From the NCBI GenBank assembly GCA_049972045.1, contig JBMFKS010000004.1:1-61296 (forward strand): a stretch of 61,296 nt of DNA, given 5' to 3'. Source of the DNA: Anaerolineae bacterium (GTDB lineage: Bacteria > Chloroflexota > Anaerolineae > B4-G1 > DUEL01). The notes below the pieces were generated by a model. It was not told where the DNA came from. It did no database searches and saw nothing but the letters and a program-made list of their open reading frames with translations. The translations under genes and the position numbers were made by a program. This document shows positions 1 to 28,494 of this stretch, piece after piece. The stretch's first letter is position 1; the number at the start of each line of letters is the position of its first letter.

Positions 1-203
1 AGCGCAGCGATGATGGGAAGGGTTTTCAAGTACTTCCTCGTCGCTGGGTAGTGGAGAGAACCTTTGGTTGGCTCGGTCGCTACCGACGGCTGAGTAAGGA
101 TTATGAAGGGTTGCCGGAGAGTAGCGAAGCGATGATCTACATCGCCATGATCCATCTGATGGTCAGACGGTTGACACGTCGCCCTCAGCCGATCCCGGCC
201 TGA
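1..203 (+). mobile_element. IS5/IS4-type DDE transposase, C-terminal end (truncated by window edge)
   Basis: Frame 3 reads ...[61 protein letters not shown] with stop TGA at 201-203. The [18 protein letters not shown] block is the signature C-terminus of IS5-family transposases. Confidence 0.75.
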
Positions 204-418
204 CCTGCCGGCCCGAGCCCATCCGTCTCTCCGGGACAAGATGATGGGAGATGGGCTACCTTCCCTCCCCGATCGCATGGCCCGCAGGGTCATCCGCGTG
301 CCATTAGCCATCCGTATGAGGCATCAGGCAGTCGGAAGGCGACCTGTCCATAGGTCTGCCAACCTTGTAACCGCAGGGGGATATCCACAATCGGGCTGCG
401 CTCGTCTCCATATTGTGT

Positions 419-532
419 TCAATCGTTAGGACAGCAGGACTTTTCAGACAAGCTCTGATCGCCCAGGCGGTGGACCCGGAGGGCGAAGGCGACCAGCAGG
501 CCCAACAGCAGGAGCCGGGTGTAGCGCTTCAT
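419..532 (-). pseudogene. N-terminal fragment of a PMT_2/ArnT-like membrane glycosyltransferase, truncated (possibly by the adjacent IS)
   Basis: ATG at 532 gives MKRYTRLLLLGLLVAFALRVHRLGDQSL, a typical GT39/GT83 N-terminus (..RL..LG.QSLW.DE). It then diverges into SEKSCCPND and stops after 37 aa. Confidence 0.3.
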
Positions 533-608
533 CTCACTCACTGTTGCGTCGCGGTCATTTTGGTCTATAATCCCTGTCGCCCTGTAAATCCCTCCCAGGA
601 GGTCGGTA

Positions 609-1661
609 ATGCTGCAGCCTTTTGATCCCACGCTCCCTCTCCCGCCCCAGGAGGCGGGGTGGGACGAAAATCTGCGCTTTGCCTACACTGAAGTGGATGC
701 CTTCTGGCTGACCCGCTGGAGCCCGGAGACGGGCTGGGAATCGGGCCGTCTCTATGAGCACCGGGGCGCAACTCTGGAACTCTCCCCCGGAGCGAACGTC
801 CTTTATTACGGCCAGGCCGTCTTTGAAGGGCTGAAGGCCCGACGGACACGGGCCGGGAAAATCGTCCTCTTCCGCCCGCAGGACAATGCCCGTCGTCTCC
901 GCGCCTCGGCGGCCCGCCTGGCGATGGAGCCACCCCCGGTGGACCTCTTTATGGAGGCGGTCACGGCAGTGGTGCGGGCTAACGTCCGCTGGATCCCTGC
1001 GCCGGAAAAGGGCAGTTTCTATCTTCGCCCCGTGCTGATCGGGACGGAGCCGGTGTTGGGCGTCCGGCCGTCGCAGGAGTACCTCTTCTACGTTTTCGGC
1101 TGCCCCGTCGGGCCGTATATGGGCGGGAATCGGCTGATCGTCCTCTCCGGCGTTCACCGCTCTGCGCCCTATGGCACGGGCACGGCCAAAGCGGCAGGCA
1201 ACTACGCCGGATGTCTCCGGCCCCAGAAAATCGCGCGGGAAATGGGCTATATGGACGTCCTCTATCTGGACGCGCGGGAGGACTGGTACATTGAAGAACT
1301 CACCGGCGCCAATTTCTTCGCGATTTTGAAGGACGGCACCCTGGTGACCCCGGCGCTGGGCTCCATTCTGCCCGGCGTGACCCGGGATTCCATCCTCACC
1401 ATCGCTCGCGAGGTCTTCGGCTGGGTCGCCGTGGAGCGGAAACTGGCGATAGACGAGGTCCTCCGCGACGCTGCCGAGGCCTTCTACGTGGGCACCGCGG
1501 CAGTCCTCTCCCCGGTGACCATCATCCACTACCAGGGGGAAGACCATCCCATTGGCAACGGCCAGCCCGGCCCCCGCGCCCAGATGCTCCGCCAGGCCCT
1601 GGAGGGGATTCAACTTCAGGAGCGGCCCGACCTGTGGGGCTGGGTGGTAGAGGTAGCCTGA
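609..1661 (+). CDS. ilvE: branched-chain amino acid aminotransferase (class IV PLP enzyme)
   Basis: 350 aa with the blocks YGQAVFEGLKARR, FRPQDNARRLRASAARLAM, FYLRPVLIGT, KAAGNYAGCL, GYMDVLYLD and ILPGVTRDS. SD GGAGG lies upstream and a TTGCGT-16-TATAAT promoter sits near 545-572. Confidence 0.92.
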   Translation: MLQPFDPTLPLPPQEAGWDENLRFAYTEVDAFWLTRWSPETGWESGRLYEHRGATLELSPGANVLYYGQAVFEGLKARRTRAGKIVLFRPQDNARRLRASAARLAMEPPPVDLFMEAVTAVVRANVRWIPAPEKGSFYLRPVLIGTEPVLGVRPSQEYLFYVFGCPVGPYMGGNRLIVLSGVHRSAPYGTGTAKAAGNYAGCLRPQKIAREMGYMDVLYLDAREDWYIEELTGANFFAILKDGTLVTPALGSILPGVTRDSILTIAREVFGWVAVERKLAIDEVLRDAAEAFYVGTAAVLSPVTIIHYQGEDHPIGNGQPGPRAQMLRQALEGIQLQERPDLWGWVVEVA

Positions 1662-2051
1662 ACAAAAAACTCCCGTCCCCGAAGGGACGGGAGTTTTTCT
1701 TCCCGCGGTACCACCCTTCTTGCCCCACACTTGACAATGGGGCCCCTCTGTCGGCGACCCCCGATCGCCGCGTCCCGATAACGGAGGACGACTCCGGCCG
1801 AGTCTACTGGGTTGGAAGTCGGGAGAGCGGTAAACTGGTACCTGGTAAGCGGGCTCGCTCCTCCCGCTTACCATTTCCCCCCAACCGTTCGGTCGGCGGC
1901 TCCGGAGGGATTTTCGGCCCAGCCCCCGCACCCGGCTCTCACCTCCCCCGGGCTCTCTGGAGCGGCGCCCCGGACCTACTCGTCTCCATCGTCGCCTTTG
2001 GCTTGTCTGCCATTTAAAGCCCGGCCGGTTATGCCCGCCCGGGCGCTCCGT
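1662..2051 (-). promoter_or_regulatory. T-box riboswitch leader, inferred Ile specifier AUC, with no sense-strand gene downstream (convergent with ilvE)
   Basis: Minus strand carries the exact T-box core GGGUGGUACCGCG (1715-1703). The antiterminator is AAGGG / 7-nt bulge UGGUACC / GCGGGA..UCCCGU / CCCUU and competes with the terminator. Stem I shows GACGAGUA, CCAGAGAG and GGUGAGAGCC. The specifier loop reads GAAA-AUC-C (AUC at 1911-1909), the same register as the thrS leader (GAAA-ACC-C). Confidence 0.85.
1670..1698. terminator. bidirectional intrinsic terminator shared by ilvE (+) and the convergent T-box leader (-)
   Basis: 10-bp stem CTCCCGTCCC / GGGACGGGAG with a CGAA loop. It has TTTTT on the plus side (1694-1698) and an A-rich run 1662-1669, which is the U-tract for the minus strand. 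Confidence 0.85.
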
Positions 2052-2056
2052 AGTCG

Positions 2057-2085
2057 ATTATGCCACAACTGGGGGATTTTGTCAA
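2057..2085 (-). promoter_or_regulatory. sigma-70-type promoter driving the convergent T-box leader
   Basis: Minus strand TTGACA (2085-2080), 17-nt spacer, CATAAT (2062-2057). Confidence 0.7.
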
Positions 2086-2163
2086 ACGGCGATGAGAGGT
2101 GAGAGGCTCAAAATGGGCTCACCAGGCGGGGAGGGTAGGTAGTGACGGCAAGCTATGCTTCCC

Positions 2164-3269: not shown

Positions 3270-5320
3270 GTGCCTGCCACACCGTTCGGGAGAGCGTTAC
3301 CCTGCCGGCCGTCCGGGAGCGCCCCATTCTGGTCGCACTGGCCGGCCAGCCCAATGTGGGCAAATCCACCCTCTTCAATCTCCTCACCGGCCTCCACCAG
3401 CACGTGGGGAACTGGCCCGGCAAGACGGTAGAGCGGAAAGAGGGACATTTCACCTTCCATGGCACTTCCTACCGGCTGGTGGACCTCCCTGGCACCTACA
3501 GCCTGACGGCCAACTCGCCGGAGGAACTGATCGCCCGGGAGTTCATCCTGCGGGAGCGACCCGATGTGGTGGTGGCGGTGGTGGACGCGGCGACGCTGGA
3601 GCGGAGCCTATATCTTGTGGCGGAACTCCTGCCCCTTCCGTCACCCGTCATTGTCGCGCTGAATATGATGGACGTCGCCCGGCAGGAGGGCATCCAGGTG
3701 GAGCCGGAGGTCCTGCAGGCCGCGCTGGGGGTGCCGGTAGTCCCGATGTCGGCAACGCACGGGATAGGGGTGCCGGAGTTATTGGAGACGGTGGAACAGA
3801 TGGCGCGCGGCGAACTCCCCTACACCCCGCGCCTTCCCCAGATTCGCCCCGACCACCGGGAAGCGCTGGAAATGGTGGAAGAACACATCGCCGGATACGT
3901 TCCGGAGCCGTATCCCCGGGAGTGGGTGGCACTGAAGTTGCTGGAAGGCGATCCCGAGGTGACCCGGATGATGCGGGAGGCCCTGCCGCCCGAGCGCTGG
4001 GCGGAAGTCCACGCACTCCTGCGGGCCCACGACGACGCGCAGGTGGCCGTCGCCAGCGGGCGGTACGAGTGGATCGGCCGCATGGTGCGCGCCGCCGTCA
4101 CCCGCCCGCGCATCGGGCAGATCGGGCTGACCGAGCGGCTGGACCGCTGGGCCACCCACCCCGTCGGGGGGCTGGTCATCCTGGCCGGGATCCTCGGGCT
4201 GGTCTTCTGGCTGACGTACACCGTTGGCGCGCCGCTGCAGGGATGGCTGGAGAACGGGGTCGGTGCTCTGGCAGAGGGGGTGCGCGGCCTGCTGGCCGGC
4301 ATGCCGACCTGGCTCTCCGGCCTCCTGGCCGACGGCATCATCGGCGGGGCCGGGGCTGTGCTCACCTTCCTCCCCATCCTGGTTATCTTCTTCGCGGCGA
4401 TGGCCTTTCTGGAGGACGTGGGCTACATGGCCCGCGCGGCCTATGTGATGGACGGCCTGATGCACCTCATCGGCCTCCACGGCAAATCGTTCCTCCCCCT
4501 CTTCCTGGGTTTCGGGTGCAACGTCCCGGCCATCCTGGGAACCCGGGTGATTGAATCCCATCGGGCCCGCCTGCTGACCATCCTGCTAGCTCCTCTGGTC
4601 CCCTGTACGGCGCGAATGGCGGTGATCGCCTTCCTGGCGCCGGCCTTCTTCGGCCGCGCCGCGCTGCTGGTCTCCTGGGGACTGATCCTGACTTCCATTC
4701 TCATTCTGGCACTCACCGGTGCGGTGGTCAACCGCCTGATGTTTCGGGGACAGCGGTCGGCTTTCATTATGGAACTGCCCCTCTACCACCTCCCCCATTG
4801 GCGGACGATTGGCTTCTCCGTCTGGCAGCGGAGCCTCTCCTTCGTCCGCAAAGCGGGGACGGTCATTCTGGCGGTGTCGGTGGTTGTCTGGGTACTCTCC
4901 ATTCTGCCCGGCGGGGGCGTGGAGGGGAGTTATCTGGCGCAAATCGGCCGCTGGCTGGAGCCGGTAGGCCGGCTGGCGGGACTGGACTGGCGGTTGGCAG
5001 TGGCGCTCCTGAGCGGTTTCGTGGCCAAAGAGAACTCCATTGCCACGCTGGGGGTACTCTTCCGGGCCGGGGAGGAGGGACTGGCAGGCCTGCTGGCGGC
5101 GACCTATCCGCCCGCCAGTGCGCTGGCCTATCTGGTGGTGCAGACGCTGTTTATCCCCTGCGTGGCGACGGTGGGGGCCATCCGCCAGGAAACAGCCTCC
5201 TGGCGCTGGACGCTGTTCAGCATCGGACTGTTGCTGGTCATCTCCCTGTTGGCCGGGGCCGTCACGTTTCAGGTCGCTCAGAGCGCAATTCCGCTGGCAT
5301 CGCGGCTTCTTACCCGATGA
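3266..5320 (+). CDS. feoB: ferrous iron transporter B (GTPase plus permease)
   Basis: 684 aa. The G-domain has GQPNVGKSTLFN and DLPG, followed by polytopic membrane domains. ATGA overlap with feoA. Confidence 0.93.
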   Translation: MSACHTVRESVTLPAVRERPILVALAGQPNVGKSTLFNLLTGLHQHVGNWPGKTVERKEGHFTFHGTSYRLVDLPGTYSLTANSPEELIAREFILRERPDVVVAVVDAATLERSLYLVAELLPLPSPVIVALNMMDVARQEGIQVEPEVLQAALGVPVVPMSATHGIGVPELLETVEQMARGELPYTPRLPQIRPDHREALEMVEEHIAGYVPEPYPREWVALKLLEGDPEVTRMMREALPPERWAEVHALLRAHDDAQVAVASGRYEWIGRMVRAAVTRPRIGQIGLTERLDRWATHPVGGLVILAGILGLVFWLTYTVGAPLQGWLENGVGALAEGVRGLLAGMPTWLSGLLADGIIGGAGAVLTFLPILVIFFAAMAFLEDVGYMARAAYVMDGLMHLIGLHGKSFLPLFLGFGCNVPAILGTRVIESHRARLLTILLAPLVPCTARMAVIAFLAPAFFGRAALLVSWGLILTSILILALTGAVVNRLMFRGQRSAFIMELPLYHLPHWRTIGFSVWQRSLSFVRKAGTVILAVSVVVWVLSILPGGGVEGSYLAQIGRWLEPVGRLAGLDWRLAVALLSGFVAKENSIATLGVLFRAGEEGLAGLLAATYPPASALAYLVVQTLFIPCVATVGAIRQETASWRWTLFSIGLLLVISLLAGAVTFQVAQSAIPLASRLLTR

Positions 5321-5836: not shown

Positions 5837-7315
5837 TTAGGACATCTGTTCCCACCGGCCCAGCAACCGCCACCGGCTGATGGTCTCCTCCCGGCGACTT
5901 CCGGCCCGACGGCGCCAATCCGCCAGAACTGCCATCAGCGCGGCCGCGAGGACCTCTTCGTCCTCCGGCGGGGGCGGGACGAGCCTCTCCTCCTCCAGGA
6001 AGCGGGTATGGACCTGCCCCCCGAAAAAGCGGGGGCTGTTCATCAGCGCCCGATGCAGGTCCAGGTTGGTCGTCACACCCAGAATCTGGTATTCATCCAG
6101 CGCGCGGCGCATCCGGACGATCGCGACGCCGCGCGTCTCGCCCCACGTGATGAGTTTGGCCAGCAGGGAATCGTAATAGGAGGTGATGGTCATTCCCTCG
6201 CAGATGCCGCTATCCACCCGGATGCCCGGCCCGCCCGGCTCCCGGAGCCGAAGGATGCGCCCGACGGAGGGTGCGAAATCCCGATCGGGGTCCTCCGCCA
6301 GGATGCGGCATTCCAGCGCCCAGCCGCGGGGGCGGATGTCCCACTGCCGGTAGGGGAGTTCCCGTCCAGCGGCGATGCGGAGTTGCTCCTTGACGATGTC
6401 CACCCCCGTAACAACCTCGGTGACGGTATGCTCCACCTGCAGGCGAGGGTTGACCTCAATAAAGTAGAACCGCCCATCCGGGCCCAGGAGGAACTCCACG
6501 GTCCCTGCGCCCACATAGCGGACGGCCCGCATCAGGGTGACGGCGGCCCGAGAAAGCCGCTTCCGCAGGTCCGGCGTCACCGCGCGGGAGGGAGACTCCT
6601 CCACCAGTTTCTGGTGGCGTCGCTGGATGGAGCACTCCCGCTCCCCCAGGTGAATTACATGGCCGCGCGAATCGGCGAGAATCTGGATCTCAATGTGGCG
6701 GGCCTGTTCCACCTGGCGCTCCAGGTAGAGGGCATCGTCGCCGAAGGCGTTGCGGGCCTCCCGACGGGCCAGAGGGATGGCCGTCTCCAGTTCCTCCCGG
6801 GAGCGGGCGACCCGGATGCCGATGCCTCCGCCCCCGGCGGCGGCCTTGAGAACAACGGGATACCCCATGCGGTCCGCCGCCGCCAGCAACTCCCGATCTT
6901 CCAGCGGGTGGTCCGTTCCCGGCAGGACAGGGATGCCCAGCCGCCGGGCCAACCGTCGCGCGGCGACCTTATCCCCCAGCAACTCCAGCGCCTCCGGCCG
7001 GGGCCCGACAAAGATGAGACCCGCCTCGGCGCAAGCGCGAGCGAAAGCGGCCGATTCGGCCAGGAATCCGTAGCCGGGGTGGACGGCCTGGGCTCCCGCC
7101 TTCCGCGCGACCTCTATGATGCGGTCGGCGCGCAGGTAACTCTCCCGCGCCGGCGGCGGGCCGATACAGTAGGCCTCGTCGGCATAGCGGATGTGCAGAG
7201 AACTCCGGTCCGCCTCGGAGTAGACGGCGACCGTTTCCAGGCCCAGTTCCCGGCAGGCCCGCAGCACCCGAACAGCAATTTCTCCCCGGTTGGCGACAAG
7301 GACTTTGCGGATCAT
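5837..7315 (-). CDS. accC: biotin carboxylase
   Basis: 492 aa beginning MIRKVLVANRGEIAVRVLRAC, with ATP-grasp and biotin carboxylase blocks throughout. Confidence 0.93.
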   Translation of the reverse strand: MIRKVLVANRGEIAVRVLRACRELGLETVAVYSEADRSSLHIRYADEAYCIGPPPARESYLRADRIIEVARKAGAQAVHPGYGFLAESAAFARACAEAGLIFVGPRPEALELLGDKVAARRLARRLGIPVLPGTDHPLEDRELLAAADRMGYPVVLKAAAGGGGIGIRVARSREELETAIPLARREARNAFGDDALYLERQVEQARHIEIQILADSRGHVIHLGERECSIQRRHQKLVEESPSRAVTPDLRKRLSRAAVTLMRAVRYVGAGTVEFLLGPDGRFYFIEVNPRLQVEHTVTEVVTGVDIVKEQLRIAAGRELPYRQWDIRPRGWALECRILAEDPDRDFAPSVGRILRLREPGGPGIRVDSGICEGMTITSYYDSLLAKLITWGETRGVAIVRMRRALDEYQILGVTTNLDLHRALMNSPRFFGGQVHTRFLEEERLVPPPPEDEEVLAAALMAVLADWRRRAGSRREETISRWRLLGRWEQMS

Positions 7316-7348
7316 GCGGATTCCGTGGTTTCGTGGTCCGCTTTGCGG

Positions 7349-7927
7349 TTAGGGGCGATGGGATTGCACCAGTGCCCACGCCGACGGGAGCGCCAGGACC
7401 GCCAGGGTGAGTTTGAGCAGGTCGCCCGGGATGAAGGGCCAGAGCCCCATTATCAGCGCCCGCTCCGGACCGACAAGGCAGGCCAGCCAGGGCAGGCCAA
7501 AGAGGTAAATCACCAGATTGCCCGCCAGCATGGCCAGCACGGCCGTGAGGACCCGCCGGTCCCAGCCGCGCTCGCAGAGCCACCCGGTCACGGCCGCTGC
7601 AGCCACAAACCCCACCAAGTATCCCCCCGTCGGTCCGAGGAGTCGGGCCAGGCCGCCGCTTCCCCCCGCGAAGACCGGCAACCCGGCAATGCCCTCCAGC
7701 AGGTACAGGCCGAGGGCCAGCGCTCCCCGGCGGCTTCCCAGCAGGGCGCCCACCAGCAGAACGCCGAATGTTTGCCCGGTGATCGGCACCGGCGTAAAGG
7801 GCAGTGGGATGGCTATCTGGGCCATCAGGCCGACCCATACACTTCCGCCACCGATCAACAGCGCGTCATAAACCAGTGTTCTGGTTCCGATCAGCGTGTC
7901 CACCAGTGTCCCGCTTCCTTTTTCCAT
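7349..7927 (-). CDS. bioY: biotin transporter BioY
   Basis: Contains PFTPVPITGQTFGVLLVGALLG, GGYLVGF and other BioY membrane protein motifs. Start MEKGSG at 7927 is preferred over 7963 because of the GGGAGGGG SD. Confidence 0.8.
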   Translation of the reverse strand: MEKGSGTLVDTLIGTRTLVYDALLIGGGSVWVGLMAQIAIPLPFTPVPITGQTFGVLLVGALLGSRRGALALGLYLLEGIAGLPVFAGGSGGLARLLGPTGGYLVGFVAAAAVTGWLCERGWDRRVLTAVLAMLAGNLVIYLFGLPWLACLVGPERALIMGLWPFIPGDLLKLTLAVLALPSAWALVQSHRP

Positions 7928-10913: not shown

Positions 10914-12166
10914 TACGGGGTGGCTCCTTCCTCCTGCGCCACGAAGATCAGGCAGCCGTTGTGTCCACCGAAGCCGAAGGAGTTGGAAAGGGCCACCCGG
11001 GGTTCCAGGTATCGGGCCTGGTTAGGGACGTAGTCCAGGTCGCATTCGGGATCCGGGGTCTCGTAGTTGATGGTGGGATGGACCCATCCGGTCTCCAGGC
11101 TTTTCACGCAGACGATGGCCTCCACCGCCCCGGCTGCTCCCATCAGGTGGCCGATCATGGACTTGGTGGAATTGACGGCAAGGCGATCGGCGTGGGGGCC
11201 GAAGACGACACGGATAGCCCGGGTCTCAATCCGGTCATTGAGCGGAGTGCTGGTGCCGTGGGCGTTGATGTAATCCACCGCCTCCAGGGGGAGTCCGGCA
11301 TCGGCCAGCGCGCGCCGCATGGCCAGCGCGGCCCCCTCTCCGGCCTCATCCGGCGCGGCGATGTGGTAGGCGTCGCAGGAGGCCCCATAGCCGGCCAGTT
11401 CGCAGTAGATGCGCGCGCCGCGGGCCTGCGCATGTTCCAGGGATTCCAGGAGCAGCACCCCCGCGCCCTCCCCCAGGACGAAGCCATCCCGGTGAGCGTC
11501 AAAGGGACGACAGGCGCGCGGAGGCTCGTCGTTGCGGCAGGAGAGCGCGCCCATGTTGGCAAAGCCGCTGATGGCCAGGGGGTGAATGACGGCCTCGCTG
11601 CCGCCGCAGAGCATCACCTCCGCGTCGCCCCGGCGGATCATCTCCGCCGCCTCGCCGATCGCGTGGGAGCCGGTGGCGCAGGCCGAGGCGAGGGCGATGT
11701 TGGGGCCCCGCAGGCCGTAGGTGATGGCAATGACCGCTGAGGCCGCGTTGGGCATCATCATCGGGATCATCAAGGGGCTCACGCGCCGGGGCCCGGCGTC
11801 CCGGAGGACGTCGTGGTTCTCCAGAAACGTCAGTGCGCCCCCGATGCCCGTGCCGATGAGGACGCCGACCGCGTCCCGATCTTCCCGGTTCAACTGGAGC
11901 CTGGCATCGGCGATGGCCTGGCGGGCCGCCTCCAGTGCGAAGAGGGCGAAGCGGTCGTGGCGGCGGGCCTCCCGCCGCCCGAAGAGGGCCACCGGGTCAA
12001 AGTCCTTCACCTCAGCAGCGATGCGGACCTCCAGGCCGGAGGCATCAAACTGAGTGATGGGGCCGACCCCGCTCTTGCCTGCCAGCAGGTTCTCCCAGAA
12101 CGTGGGCACGTCGTTGCCCAGCGGCGTGACGGCGCCCAGTCCAGTAACCACAACCCGTTTTTGCAT
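10913..12166 (-). CDS. fabF: 3-oxoacyl-ACP synthase II
   Basis: Start [17 protein letters not shown] at 12166; 417 aa with full KAS II blocks. The ORF-track start at 12268 lies inside a MITE. Confidence 0.92.
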
Positions 12167-18692: not shown

Positions 18693-19055
18693 TTGACAAT
18701 TTCCCCAAACCGGCTATAATATCTCAAAGCCCGACGTGGGGCATAGGCCACAAGTCGGCAGTCAATAACAGAGCGACAACCTGAAGGTCCAACGTGTTGA
18801 CCGGGACGAGTACCGGCCTGAGAAGGCTTCAGAGAGGGAGGGTCGGAGGCTGAGAGCCCTCCCGCCGGACGGTCGGGAAAACCCCCCGGGAGCGGGCCCC
18901 GGAAAGGGGGGTTCCCCCGAGTATGGGGCTCCGGGCCAGGCCCGTTACAGCCTCAGAGGGCGGTCGGCGCCCCTTCCAATGGGCCGACCGAACCTGGGTG
19001 GAACCACGTGGGGATAAAGAAAACCCCCGCGCCCCAGGGCGCGGGGGTTTTTTTC
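18693..19055 (+). promoter_or_regulatory. promoter plus T-box riboswitch leader (Thr specifier ACC) of thrS
   Basis: TTGACA (18693-18698), 16 nt, TATAAT (18715-18720). Stem I has GACGAGUA and CAGAGAG. The specifier loop is GAAA-ACC-C (ACC at 18881-18883) and the T-box core is GGGUGGAACCACG (about 18996-19008). Terminator CCCCCGCGCCC..GGGCGCGGGGG plus T7 at 19024-19054. Confidence 0.85.
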
Positions 19056-19094
19056 GTTCCGCCCTGTATCGCGCACCTTGTATCCTCTCCCTAA

Positions 19095-19238
19095 CTTGAC
19101 ATTGTTAGATTCCAGGCCAAGTGTCATTGCGAGGAGCGGAGCGACGAAGCAATCTCCACCGTTACTTGCATTTGAAGGCGGGAGATTGCTTCGCTACGCT
19201 CGCAATGACATCCTTTGTTGGGCTATGACAGCGAATTT
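19095..19238 (+). repeat. MITE-D copy (GTCATTGCGAG...GAAGCAATCTCC long-hairpin element), right TIR truncated
   Basis: About 90% identical to the reverse complement of the full 157-bp copy at 54944-55100. It lies between the T-box terminator and the thrS SD. Confidence 0.85.
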
Positions 19239-19254
19239 AAAAAAGGAGGCCGAA

Positions 19255-21048
19255 ATGTCCGAACATACCCAAAACGACCATCTGCTGCGCATCCGCCACT
19301 CCGCGTCGCACGTGATGGCCCAGGCCGTCCTGGAGAAATTCCCGGGGGCCAAACTGGCCATCGGGCCAGCGATTGAGACCGGCTTCTACTACGACTTTGA
19401 CCTCCCCCGCCCGCTCACCCCGGAGGACCTGGCAGAGATTGAGGCCCGGATGCGGGAGATCATCGCCGAAGGGTACGACTTCGTCTACCAGGAGATCAGC
19501 GAGGAGGAGGCCCGCCGCCTCTTCGCCGACCAGCCCTACAAACTGGAACTGATAGAAGGCATCCTGGCAGGCGGCGTGGACGAAGACGGCAACCCCACCG
19601 AGGAGCGGCCCGTCCTCTCCATCTACCGCCACGGCCCCTTCGTGGACCTCTGCCGGGGGCCCCATGTCGCCAACACCCGGGAGATCAACCCGGACGCAGT
19701 GAAACTGCTCAGCGTCGCCGGGGCGTACTGGCGGGGGGACGAGCGGCGGCCCATGCTCCAGCGCATCTACGGCACCGCCTGGGAGACGCCGGAGGACCTG
19801 CAAGCCTACCTGGCCTGGCGGGAGGAGGTGGAGCGGCGGGACCACCGGCGGCTCATCAAGGAACTGGACCTCATCAGTTTCCACGAGGAGGGCGGCGCCG
19901 GCCTGGCCTACTGGCACCCCAAGGGAGGCCGCATCCGCCAAATCATTGAGGACCACTGGCGCGCCCGACACCGGGAGGGTGGCTACGAAATCGTCTATAC
20001 CCCCCACATCGGGCGGGCCCAACTCTGGGAACGTTCCGGACACCTTCAGTTCTACAAGGAGAACATGTATGCCCCCATAGACATTGAGGGGGTCCAGTAC
20101 TACCTGAAGCCGATGAACTGTCCCTTCCACATCCTCATCTACAAGACCCGGACCCGCTCCTACCGGGACCTGCCGCTACGCTGGGCGGAACTGGGGACGG
20201 TCTACCGCTTTGAGCGCAGCGGTGTCCTCCACGGTCTCCTGCGCGTGCGCGGCTTCACGCAGGACGACGCCCACATCTTCTGCACGCCGGAGCAGATAGA
20301 GGACGAAATTCTGGGCGTGCTGGACTTCAGCCTAAGCCTCCTGCGGGACTTCGGCTTTGAGGACTACCAGATAGAACTGAGCGTGCGCGACCCCCGAATG
20401 CCGGAGAAGTACGCGGGGAGCGATGAGATGTGGGAACAGGCGGAGCGCTCCCTGGTCAAGGCGCTGGAGGCCCGGAATCTCCCCTACAAGCGCATGGAGG
20501 GCGAGGCCGTCTTCTACGGGCCCAAGATTGACATCAAAATCAAAGATGCGCTGGGCCGGGCCTGGCAGTGCACGACCATCCAGTTTGACTTCAACGTGCC
20601 GGAGCGGTTTGACCTGACCTTCCGGGACCGGGACGGGCAGGAGCGGCGGCCCTACATGGTCCATCGGGCGCTCTTGGGGAGTCTGGAGCGCTTCTTCGGC
20701 GTACTGGTGGAGCACTACGGCGGCGCGTTCCCGGTCTGGCTGGCGCCCGTCCAGGCGGTGGTCATCCCCATCGCGGACCGGCATGGGGACTACGCCTGGG
20801 AGGTGGCGCGAAGGCTGAAGGCGGCCAGTCTGCGGGTGGAGGTCAACGACTCCCCTGAGCGGATGCAGGCCAAAATCCGCGATGCTCAACTGGAGAAAAT
20901 CCCCTATATGCTGGTCGTGGGCGACCGGGAGATGCAGAACGGGGAGGTCAACCTGCGCCGCCGGGACGGCGAGGTTCCCGGGGCGATGTCGGTGGAGGCC
21001 TTCATCGCGATGGCCCAGGAAGCCATCCGGGAGCGACGGTTGCTATAG
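19255..21048 (+). CDS. thrS: threonyl-tRNA synthetase (no N-terminal TGS domain)
   Basis: ATG at 19255 follows AGGAGG (19244-19249); 597 aa. Begins at the editing domain (RHSASHVMAQAV..GFYYDFDL). The ORF-track start at 19078 lies in MITE DNA. Confidence 0.92.
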   Translation: MSEHTQNDHLLRIRHSASHVMAQAVLEKFPGAKLAIGPAIETGFYYDFDLPRPLTPEDLAEIEARMREIIAEGYDFVYQEISEEEARRLFADQPYKLELIEGILAGGVDEDGNPTEERPVLSIYRHGPFVDLCRGPHVANTREINPDAVKLLSVAGAYWRGDERRPMLQRIYGTAWETPEDLQAYLAWREEVERRDHRRLIKELDLISFHEEGGAGLAYWHPKGGRIRQIIEDHWRARHREGGYEIVYTPHIGRAQLWERSGHLQFYKENMYAPIDIEGVQYYLKPMNCPFHILIYKTRTRSYRDLPLRWAELGTVYRFERSGVLHGLLRVRGFTQDDAHIFCTPEQIEDEILGVLDFSLSLLRDFGFEDYQIELSVRDPRMPEKYAGSDEMWEQAERSLVKALEARNLPYKRMEGEAVFYGPKIDIKIKDALGRAWQCTTIQFDFNVPERFDLTFRDRDGQERRPYMVHRALLGSLERFFGVLVEHYGGAFPVWLAPVQAVVIPIADRHGDYAWEVARRLKAASLRVEVNDSPERMQAKIRDAQLEKIPYMLVVGDREMQNGEVNLRRRDGEVPGAMSVEAFIAMAQEAIRERRLL

Positions 21049-28089: not shown

Positions 28090-28494
28090 AAACAAAAAAC
28101 GCCCGCCCCTTTGCCAGGACGGGCGTTTTTCCCGTGGTGCCACCCCGCTGAGGGGCCTTTCCCCGGGAACAAAAACGCGCCGGTGACGGCGCGTTGGGGG
28201 GAAAAGCCAGCCTCACTCTTTCGCGGGTACGGCGCCGACCGGATACGGTCGGGTCCATACCCTCAGCCCGGATAACGGTGGCGACTCCGGCCCGGACTAC
28301 TACCTGACCGGCCTGTGGGCGGGTCAGGGTTCGGCGGGCGACTCCCAGGCCCATTCGGCATCGGCGCTGGTATCGGGCTTCCAGCCTCCGGCCCGACTCT
28401 CTGGAACCCCGCTACGATGCCTACTCTTCCTGATCTTCGTCTTTGGGGTATCGGTTGTTGGATATCTTATACCACAACACTGAGAAACTGTCAA
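28090..28494 (-). promoter_or_regulatory. promoter plus T-box riboswitch leader (Trp specifier UGG) of the trpS homolog
   Basis: Minus strand TTGACA (28494-28489), 17 nt, TATAAG (28471-28466). Contains GAAGAGUAGG and CCAGAGAG. The specifier is GAA-UGG-G (28353-28351) and the T-box core is GGGGUGGCACCACGGG (28146-28131). Terminator plus U6 at about 28126-28093. Confidence 0.8.

Follow-up and report, generated by a model that had tools for sequence, protein, structure and literature searches.

The window analyzed here is a DNA stretch of 61,296 nucleotides (nt) from an Anaerolineae bacterium (contig JBMFKS010000004.1 of assembly GCA_049972045.1, positions 1–61,296). Close to one end of it, the minus strand encodes a leader RNA of the T-box class of tRNA-sensing riboswitches, whose 3′ end meets that of a gene for a branched-chain amino acid aminotransferase (BCAT, ilvE) on the opposite strand. 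On the far side of BCAT, the T-box strand carries the start of a PMT_2-family glycosyltransferase gene, which is interrupted by the end of an insertion sequence (IS). The features of the locus, from the leader promoter onward, are as follows.

2085–2057, minus strand: sigma-70-type leader promoter, TTGACA (2085–2080), 17-nt spacer and TG-extended CATAAT (2065–2057)
1999–1895, minus strand: T-box stem I, placed by the Rfam alignment and by RNAalifold on 18 orthologues
1885–1810, minus strand: lineage-specific insert that extends the stem II region at its tip, 76 nt in the window copy and 10–398 nt in relatives
1809–1722, minus strand: stem IIA/B, an extra conserved hairpin and stem III, helices 93–99% paired in orthologues
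1718–1682, minus strand: antiterminator, AGGG / 7-nt bulge UGGUACC / GCGGG ... CCCGU CCCU
1664–1698, both strands: bidirectional intrinsic terminator, A5-CUCCCGUCCC-UUCG-GGGACGGGAG-U6, stem at 1693–1670
609–1661, plus strand: BCAT of the ilvE_II type, 350 amino acids (aa), assigned by family searches, convergent with the leader
544–602, plus strand: BCAT promoter (TTGCGT-16-TATAAT at 544–571) and ribosome-binding site (GGAGG at 598–602)
532–455, minus strand: start of the PMT_2-family glycosyltransferase gene, about 26 codons (MKRYTRLLLLGLLVAFALRVHRLGDQ...), the next gene on the T-box strand, truncated by the IS
1–454, plus strand: end of the IS element, with a C-terminal DDE transposase fragment at 3–203 (DDE_Tnp_1_2, 6.6e-08), interrupting PMT_2

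The T-box leader and its convergent neighbor

The leader promoter matches the consensus at 11 of 12 positions and carries the TG extension, where 0.3 such sites are expected by chance. Transcription of the leader is expected to start at ~2050 on the minus strand. A promoter of the form TTGACA-17-TGnTATAAn is kept 5′ of the leader in all relatives.

The default Rfam scan of the whole window at the gathering threshold returned nothing. In a permissive scan the T-box model RF00230 aligned end to end (model positions 1–219 of 219) to 2001–1680 on the minus strand, with 88.1 bits and an E value of 1.2e-19. The gathering score of this model is 93 bits, so that the window copy falls about 5 bits short. 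Within the stem II region, 83 nt of the window copy stay unaligned as an insertion, and orthologous leaders with shorter inserts at this place score 97.1, 106.7, 113.4 and 115.5 bits, above the gathering score. Thus, we ascribe the low score to the stem II insertion and not to missing elements. The permissive scan gave three full-length T-boxes in the window, all of them sub-threshold (88, 75 and 60 bits). As orthologues exceed the cutoff, the empty default scan can be ruled out as evidence of absence; the gathering score simply misses all three T-boxes of this GC-rich genome.

The stem I motifs on the minus strand are GACGAGUA (1984–1977), CCAGAGAG (1960–1953) and GGUGAGAGCC (1943–1934). Stem I contains a K-turn (GAUGGAGA / CCGGAGC), a specifier loop with an AGUA/GAA S-turn, an AGAGA bulge (1958–1954) and a GGUGAGA distal loop. 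Stem IIA/B (CCGG...CCGUUA, 1797–1779), the extra hairpin (GGCGA-N7-UCGCC) and stem III (1744–1722) complete the part before the antiterminator. The stem II insert is repetitive in two relatives (loci in relatives are designated by L and a number): that of L007 (~7230–7600) contains a ~43-nt unit repeated about six times in tandem, and that of L008 (~7245–7440) includes runs of 8-nt units (TTGGTAGA / TACCAGTC) that would fold into one very long hairpin.

The invariant T-box core GGGUGGUACCGCG lies at 1716–1704 on the minus strand, inside the antiterminator with its UGGN bulge. The antiterminator folds with −16 kcal/mol around the canonical 7-nt UGGUACC bulge, and the competing terminator with −28.2 kcal/mol (z = −5.4), followed by a U6 run. 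Both structures use CUCCCGUCCC and are mutually exclusive. On the plus strand the same hairpin folds with −29.1 kcal/mol (z about −5) and is followed by UUUUUCUU. The BCAT stop codon is only 3 nt from the A-tract that opens the hairpin. With an A-run on one side, a U-run on the other and a fold that is no weaker on the plus strand, the hairpin also terminates the BCAT mRNA.

The specifier codon is AUC (Ile) at 1911–1909, placed at the codon position by the Rfam alignment. In all 18 aligned orthologues AUC lies exactly one nt before the 3′ strand of the basal helix, and L033 keeps this register despite a 1-nt shift in the upstream spacing (GGAAAUCC vs GAAAAUCC). The same register reads ACC in the second T-box of the window, directly 5′ of a gene with the architecture of threonyl-tRNA synthetase (ThrRS; tRNA-synt_2b, HGTP_anticodon and tRNA_SAD domains), and UGG in the third, 5′ of a class I W/Y synthetase gene. 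Because the register is constant in the orthologues and is calibrated by these two leaders, the specificity for Ile predicted from the codon is secure, and the alternative AAU (Asn) register is unsupported. AUC also agrees with the conserved sense-strand target in relatives, the isoleucyl-tRNA synthetase (IleRS, TIGR00392). No tRNA-Ile gene was found within the window. The two further full-length T-boxes lie at 18788–19039 (+; 75 bits) and 28446–28112 (−; 60 bits), where the Thr leader precedes the ThrRS-type gene at 19078–21048 and the Trp leader the W/Y synthetase gene at 28172–27267.

The BCAT gene was identified by Pfam Aminotran_4 (1e-30), by the NCBIfam ilvE_II equivalog TIGR01123 (324 bits against a cutoff of 250) and by PRK13357 (364 against 307). 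Its promoter has homologous counterparts, TTGACA-16/17-TAyAAT with 11–12 of 12 matches, in L015, L027, L033 and L035. A 458-aa open reading frame (ORF) on the minus strand (555–1931) was rejected as a sense target; it has no family match, begins inside the leader and is a mirror frame of BCAT. Given this gene order, any leader read-through must cross the ~1.05 kb BCAT in antisense.

A preliminary description of this DNA had proposed, at the positions given above, the promoter, a complete Ile-type T-box read with AUC in preference to AAU, the mutually exclusive antiterminator and terminator, and a hairpin doubling as the terminator of a genuine, convergent ilvE. It had also deduced that read-through must yield an RNA antisense to BCAT, and had noted an IS fragment near the locus. 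Our analysis bears out all of these points. The exact T-box core that it described is present too, with coordinates one off (1716–1704, not 1715–1703). The covariance-model check that it suggested, RF00230 on the minus strand, gave its end-to-end match in the permissive scan and nothing at the gathering threshold.

Conservation of the leader and of the gene order

Relatives were gathered by exact-protein contig look-ups and one genome-collection scan, followed by local BLAST, and all of them were found via BCAT. The leader is convergent to BCAT in all 22 distinct BCAT-derived loci, which belong to Anaerolineae/Thermoflexia and have BCAT identities of 68–92%; the position of the riboswitch at the 3′ end of the opposite-strand gene is thus a conserved arrangement. 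Beyond BCAT, ileS is found on the T-box strand in 19 of the 19 distinct intact-leader loci whose contigs reach far enough. Its identity is given by the TIGR00392 equivalog (712 bits against a cutoff of 621). Three layouts were seen.

ileS directly after BCAT, with gaps of 66–294 nt: L015, L027, L028, L029, L033, L035
ileS after PMT_2: L007–L011, L018–L024, L026, L030, L031
GNAT and/or AlaX-like gene between the leader and BCAT: L028, L031, L033

The full-length PMT_2 orthologues have 780–940 aa and precede ileS in loci of the range L007–L031. The Thermoflexales branch has neither GNAT nor AlaX, and PMT_2 lies between BCAT and ileS there. No second T-box was detected in the eight loci scanned with Rfam (L007, L008, L011, L015, L025, L027, L033, L035). 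These relatives also bear on the statement in the preliminary description that no sense-strand gene follows the leader. This does not hold, since the start of PMT_2 is found at 532 on the minus strand, cut by the IS, and PMT_2 and ileS follow in relatives.

To assess the conservation of the structure we aligned two conserved modules from 18–21 distinct orthologues (18 for stem I, 21 for the 3′ module) and used slid pairing partners as controls. RNAalifold predicted 28 pairs in stem I, of which 6 show compensatory double changes, and the K-turn, S-turn, AGAGA and GGUGNRA columns are invariant. The closing pair of stem IIA/B covaries (A-U, G-C, U-A), and three pairs of stem III show compensatory changes. 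In the antiterminator helices, 99–100% of the cells are paired. For antiterminator and terminator helices taken together the range is 94–100%, and with stems I and III included it is 93–100%. For the 3′ module as a whole, 97.2% of the cells are paired in the antiterminator set of structures (46–56% with the partners slid) and 95.0% in the terminator set (37–56% with the partners slid). In 7 of the 21 orthologues a C-G pair of the terminator is replaced by U-A, and the same U keeps a G.U pair in the antiterminator. One position is thus compensated in both folds, which argues that both alternative folds are maintained.

To remove the ascertainment bias of loci found via BCAT, we scanned metagenomes independently of BCAT with a T-box-only pattern, GATGGAGACGAGTAG-N55–70-AAATCCCTCCGGAG. 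At least 120 stretches matched the pattern, and the 80 loci listed are distributed as follows.

23 of the 80: all-sense [GNAT/AlaX-like]-ileS, or ileS directly
22 of the 80: ileS separated from the leader or from AlaX by other ORFs
11 of the 80: paralogous T-box directly 5′ of acetolactate synthase (ilvB)
10 of the 80: uninformative
8 of the 80: BCAT nested antisense
6 of the 80: GNAT/AlaX in sense, contig ending before the next gene

Among these listed loci, ileS always lies on the T-box strand where the contig reaches it. As the family usually heads an all-sense [GNAT]-AlaX-like-ileS operon, the Ile T-box is, judged by its gene contexts, an ileS-operon leader, and the nesting of BCAT is a derived state of one clade. 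A rough neighbor-joining tree of IleRS (N-terminus, ~300 residues, without support values) places all nested loci in one clade, with non-nested outgroups; four members inside this clade are without BCAT (L055, L070, L072, L073). The tree fits one old BCAT insertion that would have been followed by a few losses.

Several further observations concern the surroundings of the leader in these genomes. The ilvB-type paralogous T-boxes, which have the same stem I motifs and AUC, were found in L039, L044, L051, L053, L062, L064, L076, L086, L097, L112 and L114. The operon of a GNAT acetyltransferase, an AlaX-like editing protein and ileS under an Ile T-box is seen in L033 (9053–10257), in L028 (11107–12284) and in many of L037–L116. 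The AlaX-like protein reaches 292 bits with NCBIfam AlaXM, below the cutoff of 300, and NCBIfam holds a model named “ileS with GNAT domain,” which hints at a functional GNAT-IleRS link. A literature search found no publication that combines T-box, AlaX and ileS, and a common control of IleRS and an AlaX-type editing domain through tRNA-Ile appears to be undescribed so far.

Small opposite-strand ORFs lie between the T-box or AlaX and ileS in L073, L100, L104 and L113, in pairs in L073, L100 and L113. A PIN-domain protein is encoded by one ORF of L073 and TumE by one ORF each of L100 and L113, while the ORF in L104 is similar by eye only; by their predicted products these insertions look like toxin-antitoxin modules. 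The interval between T-box and ileS thus repeatedly tolerates opposite-strand insertions, in unrelated lineages. The 4.2-kb metagenome contig L075 carries the stem I pattern twice on the same strand, at 301–390 and 3933–4022 (+), 3.6 kb apart, which may represent a duplication or two T-box-controlled units in tandem.

Around the locus itself, a variable number of tandem heptamers (ACGTGAA / GCGTGAA) lies directly 5′ of the PMT_2 start codon in L007, L008 and L018; they are absent in the window. In more distant relatives, a 6S RNA gene precedes the T-box locus by a few kb (L033, 12109–12286, −; L035, 11071–11247, −). In the window, a promoter divergent from the T-box promoter (TTGACT-16-TATAAT, 2164–2191, +) adjoins a Fur-box-like palindrome, TTGCAAATGATTTTCATTTACAA, and GC-rich repeats (GGGCTGAGCCCTCGGGGCGAAGCC...) occupy the long 5′ untranslated region of a fur-feoA-feoB operon in the 2164–2400 region.

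Predicted transcription between the leader and ileS

A consensus scanner found exactly two promoters with 11–12 of 12 matches in each of L015, L027, L033 and L035: that of the T-box on the minus strand and that of BCAT on the plus strand. No comparable minus-strand promoter and no convincing terminator was seen in these four loci between the T-box terminator and ileS. A strong independent ileS promoter was not found in L023 either, although this negative is soft, as the scanner misses weak promoters. It demands T at position 6 of the −10 box and hence also misses the Thermoflexales T-box promoters ending in TATAAG or TATAAA. Only 66 nt separate BCAT from ileS in L027, where the BCAT −35 box is ~5 nt away from the ribosome-binding site of ileS.

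The geometry at the other end of BCAT is equally tight in some loci. The stop codons of AlaX and BCAT overlap in L033, and 12 nt separate the two genes in L046. This leaves no room for a terminator, and therefore a T-box-gated transcript must enter BCAT in antisense in these two loci. Third-position variation in BCAT showed no dip at synonymous sites of the 5′ end, which would have been a sign of an embedded conserved promoter. The third-position entropy is 0.88–1.01 at the 5′ end against a mean of 1.02, with mild dips at codons 221–279 only, and this flat profile argues against a conserved element hidden in the coding sequence at that end.

One relative, L025, has kept BCAT (80% identical) and lost ileS from the locus; cmk, rpiB, a liaF-like gene, a glycosyltransferase gene and ftsK are found after PMT_2. 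Its leader (11073–11383, −) has decayed to 48 bits. The core reads GGGUAUAUCGCG, the UGG of the T-box bulge is lost, and the K-turn and basal stem are damaged. The promoter and the terminator hairpin adjoining BCAT survive, and BCAT is still convergent. Equally or more distant relatives with ileS keep the leader nearly unchanged. Together, the promoter and terminator scans, the obligatory overlap, the synonymous sites and the decay in L025 favor ileS, and not BCAT, as the probable reason why the sensor is maintained. From this gene arrangement we infer that ileS would still be transcribed from the T-box promoter across BCAT.

Taken together, we consider it fairly probable that the element is a functional attenuating tRNA-Ile T-box that serves as leader of the ileS operon, with BCAT nested antisense inside the transcription unit, so that read-through would cross BCAT into PMT_2 and ileS. 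Across the family at large the operon is all-sense, running from the T-box through GNAT, where present, and the AlaX-like editing protein to ileS. In one Anaerolineae clade, Thermoflexales and relatives, BCAT with its own strong promoter would have lodged on the opposite strand between leader and ileS. With charged tRNA-Ile, transcription from the 2085–2057 promoter would stop at the 1693–1670 hairpin, which would also end the BCAT mRNA coming from the other side. With uncharged tRNA-Ile, the acceptor end would pair with the UGGU bulge, the antiterminator would form, and the polymerase would run ~1.05 kb antisense through BCAT and then through PMT_2 and ileS.

Several points weigh against this reading. 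Weak minus-strand promoter candidates (9 of 12 matches) lie within PMT_2 or in the gap between PMT_2 and ileS in L018 and L024, where ileS may be independently promoted. The spacer between PMT_2 and ileS is 0.9–1.2 kb in L007, L018 and L026, and that of L007 includes a gene of an antitoxin family and, on the opposite strand, one for a nucleotidyltransferase. The argument from L025 concerns one lineage. Read-through across a convergent 1-kb gene with a strong promoter could be inefficient. If BCAT is biosynthetic, silencing it in Ile starvation would be counter-productive, and the layout could be tolerated rather than used. In this genome, finally, the IS may already have severed the unit.

The crossing of BCAT could also be put to use. 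Read-through would then be both the mRNA of ileS (with PMT_2 or the AlaX-like gene) and a 1-kb antisense RNA that lowers BCAT, a reciprocal coupling of the kind known as an excludon, here gated by a riboswitch. Everything that argues for an ileS leader applies equally to this proposal, and it agrees with the two strong convergent promoters, with the missing terminator between AlaX and BCAT in L033 and L046, and with the single clade that unites all nested loci on the IleRS tree. The nesting is dispensable, however, as seen from the four members of that clade without BCAT, and mobile toxin-antitoxin modules also lie antisense in the interval elsewhere, suggesting mere tolerance of opposite-strand insertions. 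We regard such a coupling as doubtful, if the best placed of the alternatives.

The preliminary description had favored a dedicated antisense switch, in which the leader is kept to silence BCAT upon binding of uncharged tRNA-Ile, and ileS and PMT_2 would be served by promoters of their own. The geometry is exactly that of the S-box at ubiG and the B12 riboswitch at pocR, with the leader ending at the 3′ end of BCAT in a common terminator, and it persists across BCAT identities of 68–92%. In L015, L027, L029 and L035 the first 1.1 kb after the leader holds only the antisense BCAT, and in some loci weak candidate promoters lie nearer to ileS. This proposal does not explain why same-strand ileS follows in every intact-leader locus that reaches far enough, nor why the T-box family is primarily an all-sense ileS-operon leader. 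L025, which has BCAT without ileS, has let the tRNA-binding elements decay, and no constraint that an antisense partner would explain is seen at the synonymous sites of BCAT. It would also be odd, physiologically, if Ile starvation led to repression of the enzyme that completes Ile synthesis. A paralogous Ile T-box turns on ilvB in related metagenome lineages; with AUC 5′ of an ilvB-like large subunit, the same signal would switch on Ile biosynthesis in related organisms. Antisense-oriented T-boxes are not enriched in a 2023 survey (107 of 15,851, p = 1.00; PMC9943018). The element is thus probably not a dedicated antisense switch, a role that we find improbable.

The leader might also be functionally orphaned in this genome, the IS within PMT_2 having cut the unit, so that the T-box would control only non-coding antisense read-through. 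PMT_2 is truncated after ~26 codons by the IS, which lies ~150 nt beyond the BCAT start codon and whose transposase reads opposite to PMT_2, and no ileS was found within the 61-kb window. Eight contigs with an identical BCAT were found; the six shown end 182–629 nt upstream of BCAT, at the IS, and therefore the IS element is repeated in the genome. Unlike that of L025, the leader is intact at every conserved position, and any uncoupling from ileS would therefore be very recent. Read-through across the IS is possible, and the IS may be followed at once by the remainder of PMT_2 and by ileS. We find this loss of function unlikely. Nor is the element an orphan left by a rearrangement, as the preliminary description had offered for an alternative: the leader-BCAT geometry is conserved clade-wide, although the recent IS insertion may have detached the leader from ileS in this one genome. 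The same description had named, as grounds for giving up the antisense reading, relatives with the leader directly upstream of a sense gene and this locus at a rearrangement breakpoint. A link between leader and ileS is indeed seen in the relatives, yet the two are not adjacent, and there is no breakpoint artefact. A pure rearrangement artefact is ruled out, because the geometry recurs in every Anaerolineae/Thermoflexia relative examined and is therefore no local accident.

Comparison with known systems

To our knowledge, T-boxes have been regarded as 5′ leaders that act strictly in cis and directly precede their genes. In the present locus, a T-box of textbook form is parted from its cognate synthetase gene by a full-length, promoter-bearing gene on the opposite strand, and this layout has survived extensive divergence. 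Annotation pipelines that rely on the nearest downstream gene would mis-assign such a riboswitch or call it an orphan. If read-through crosses BCAT, riboswitch control can work over kilobases of convergent transcription, and tRNA-Ile charging would be linked to branched-chain amino acid transamination. It would also be the first T-box-gated antisense or excludon case that we found described, as our literature search returned no description of one. The widespread T-box(Ile)-GNAT-AlaX-like-ileS operon is an unexplored association in its own right.

T-boxes of ileS are classical, and an IleRS-associated T-box has been noted in Dehalococcoides, a member of the Chloroflexi (Wels et al., 2008; PMC2494555). 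The leader described here resembles those of ileS in Bacillus, Staphylococcus and Dehalococcoides in RNA family, attenuation logic, stems I, IIA/B and III, UGGN bulge, Ile codon and IleRS target. It differs in its distance from ileS, with a 350-aa BCAT on the opposite strand in between and, in this branch, also a PMT_2 of 780–940 aa. The base after a T-box specifier codon is usually a purine, whereas it is C here. Stem II carries the hypervariable insert of 10–398 nt, and the IleRS is of the type with a DUF5915 C-terminal domain.

Only two antisense-acting riboswitches are known to be established by experiment, the S-box of ubiG-mccBA in Clostridium acetobutylicum and the AspocR B12 riboswitch of Listeria, both summarized in a recent survey (PMC9943018). 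Both resemble the present leader in being placed at the 3′ end of a gene on the other strand, to which a read-through RNA would be antisense. Their antisense RNA is itself the product, with no sense target after it, whereas here the cognate ileS is found downstream and the family otherwise serves as a leader in sense.

The survey (Serrano-Gutierrez and Merino, 2023; PMC9943018) counted 107 antisense-oriented T-boxes among 15,851, without enrichment. Its S6 table lists riboswitches with a small opposite-strand ORF before the likely true sense target, ileS included, and its authors regard these intervening ORFs of <300 bases as probable mis-annotations (PMC9943018). No case of a T-box with BCAT from Chloroflexi is present in the supplements of the survey. 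The present leader shares with the survey's cases its position on the strand opposite to the nearest downstream gene. It differs in that the intervening gene is a bona fide, independently promoted and clade-conserved enzyme gene.

Excludons are a concept from Listeria (Sesto et al., 2013; cited in PMC9943018 and in PMC7154746). An excludon is defined by one long transcript that overlaps an opposite-strand neighbor and serves as mRNA for downstream genes, and the architecture found here fits this definition at the level of the sequence. It differs in that the long transcript would be gated by a tRNA-sensing riboswitch, and the opposition of IleRS and BCAT is a supposition of ours. Were it true, one riboswitch decision would couple the induction of IleRS to the repression of BCAT, and the bidirectional hairpin would insulate both genes in the off state. 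We therefore suggest the excludon as the closest functional analogy, here in a putative T-box-gated form.

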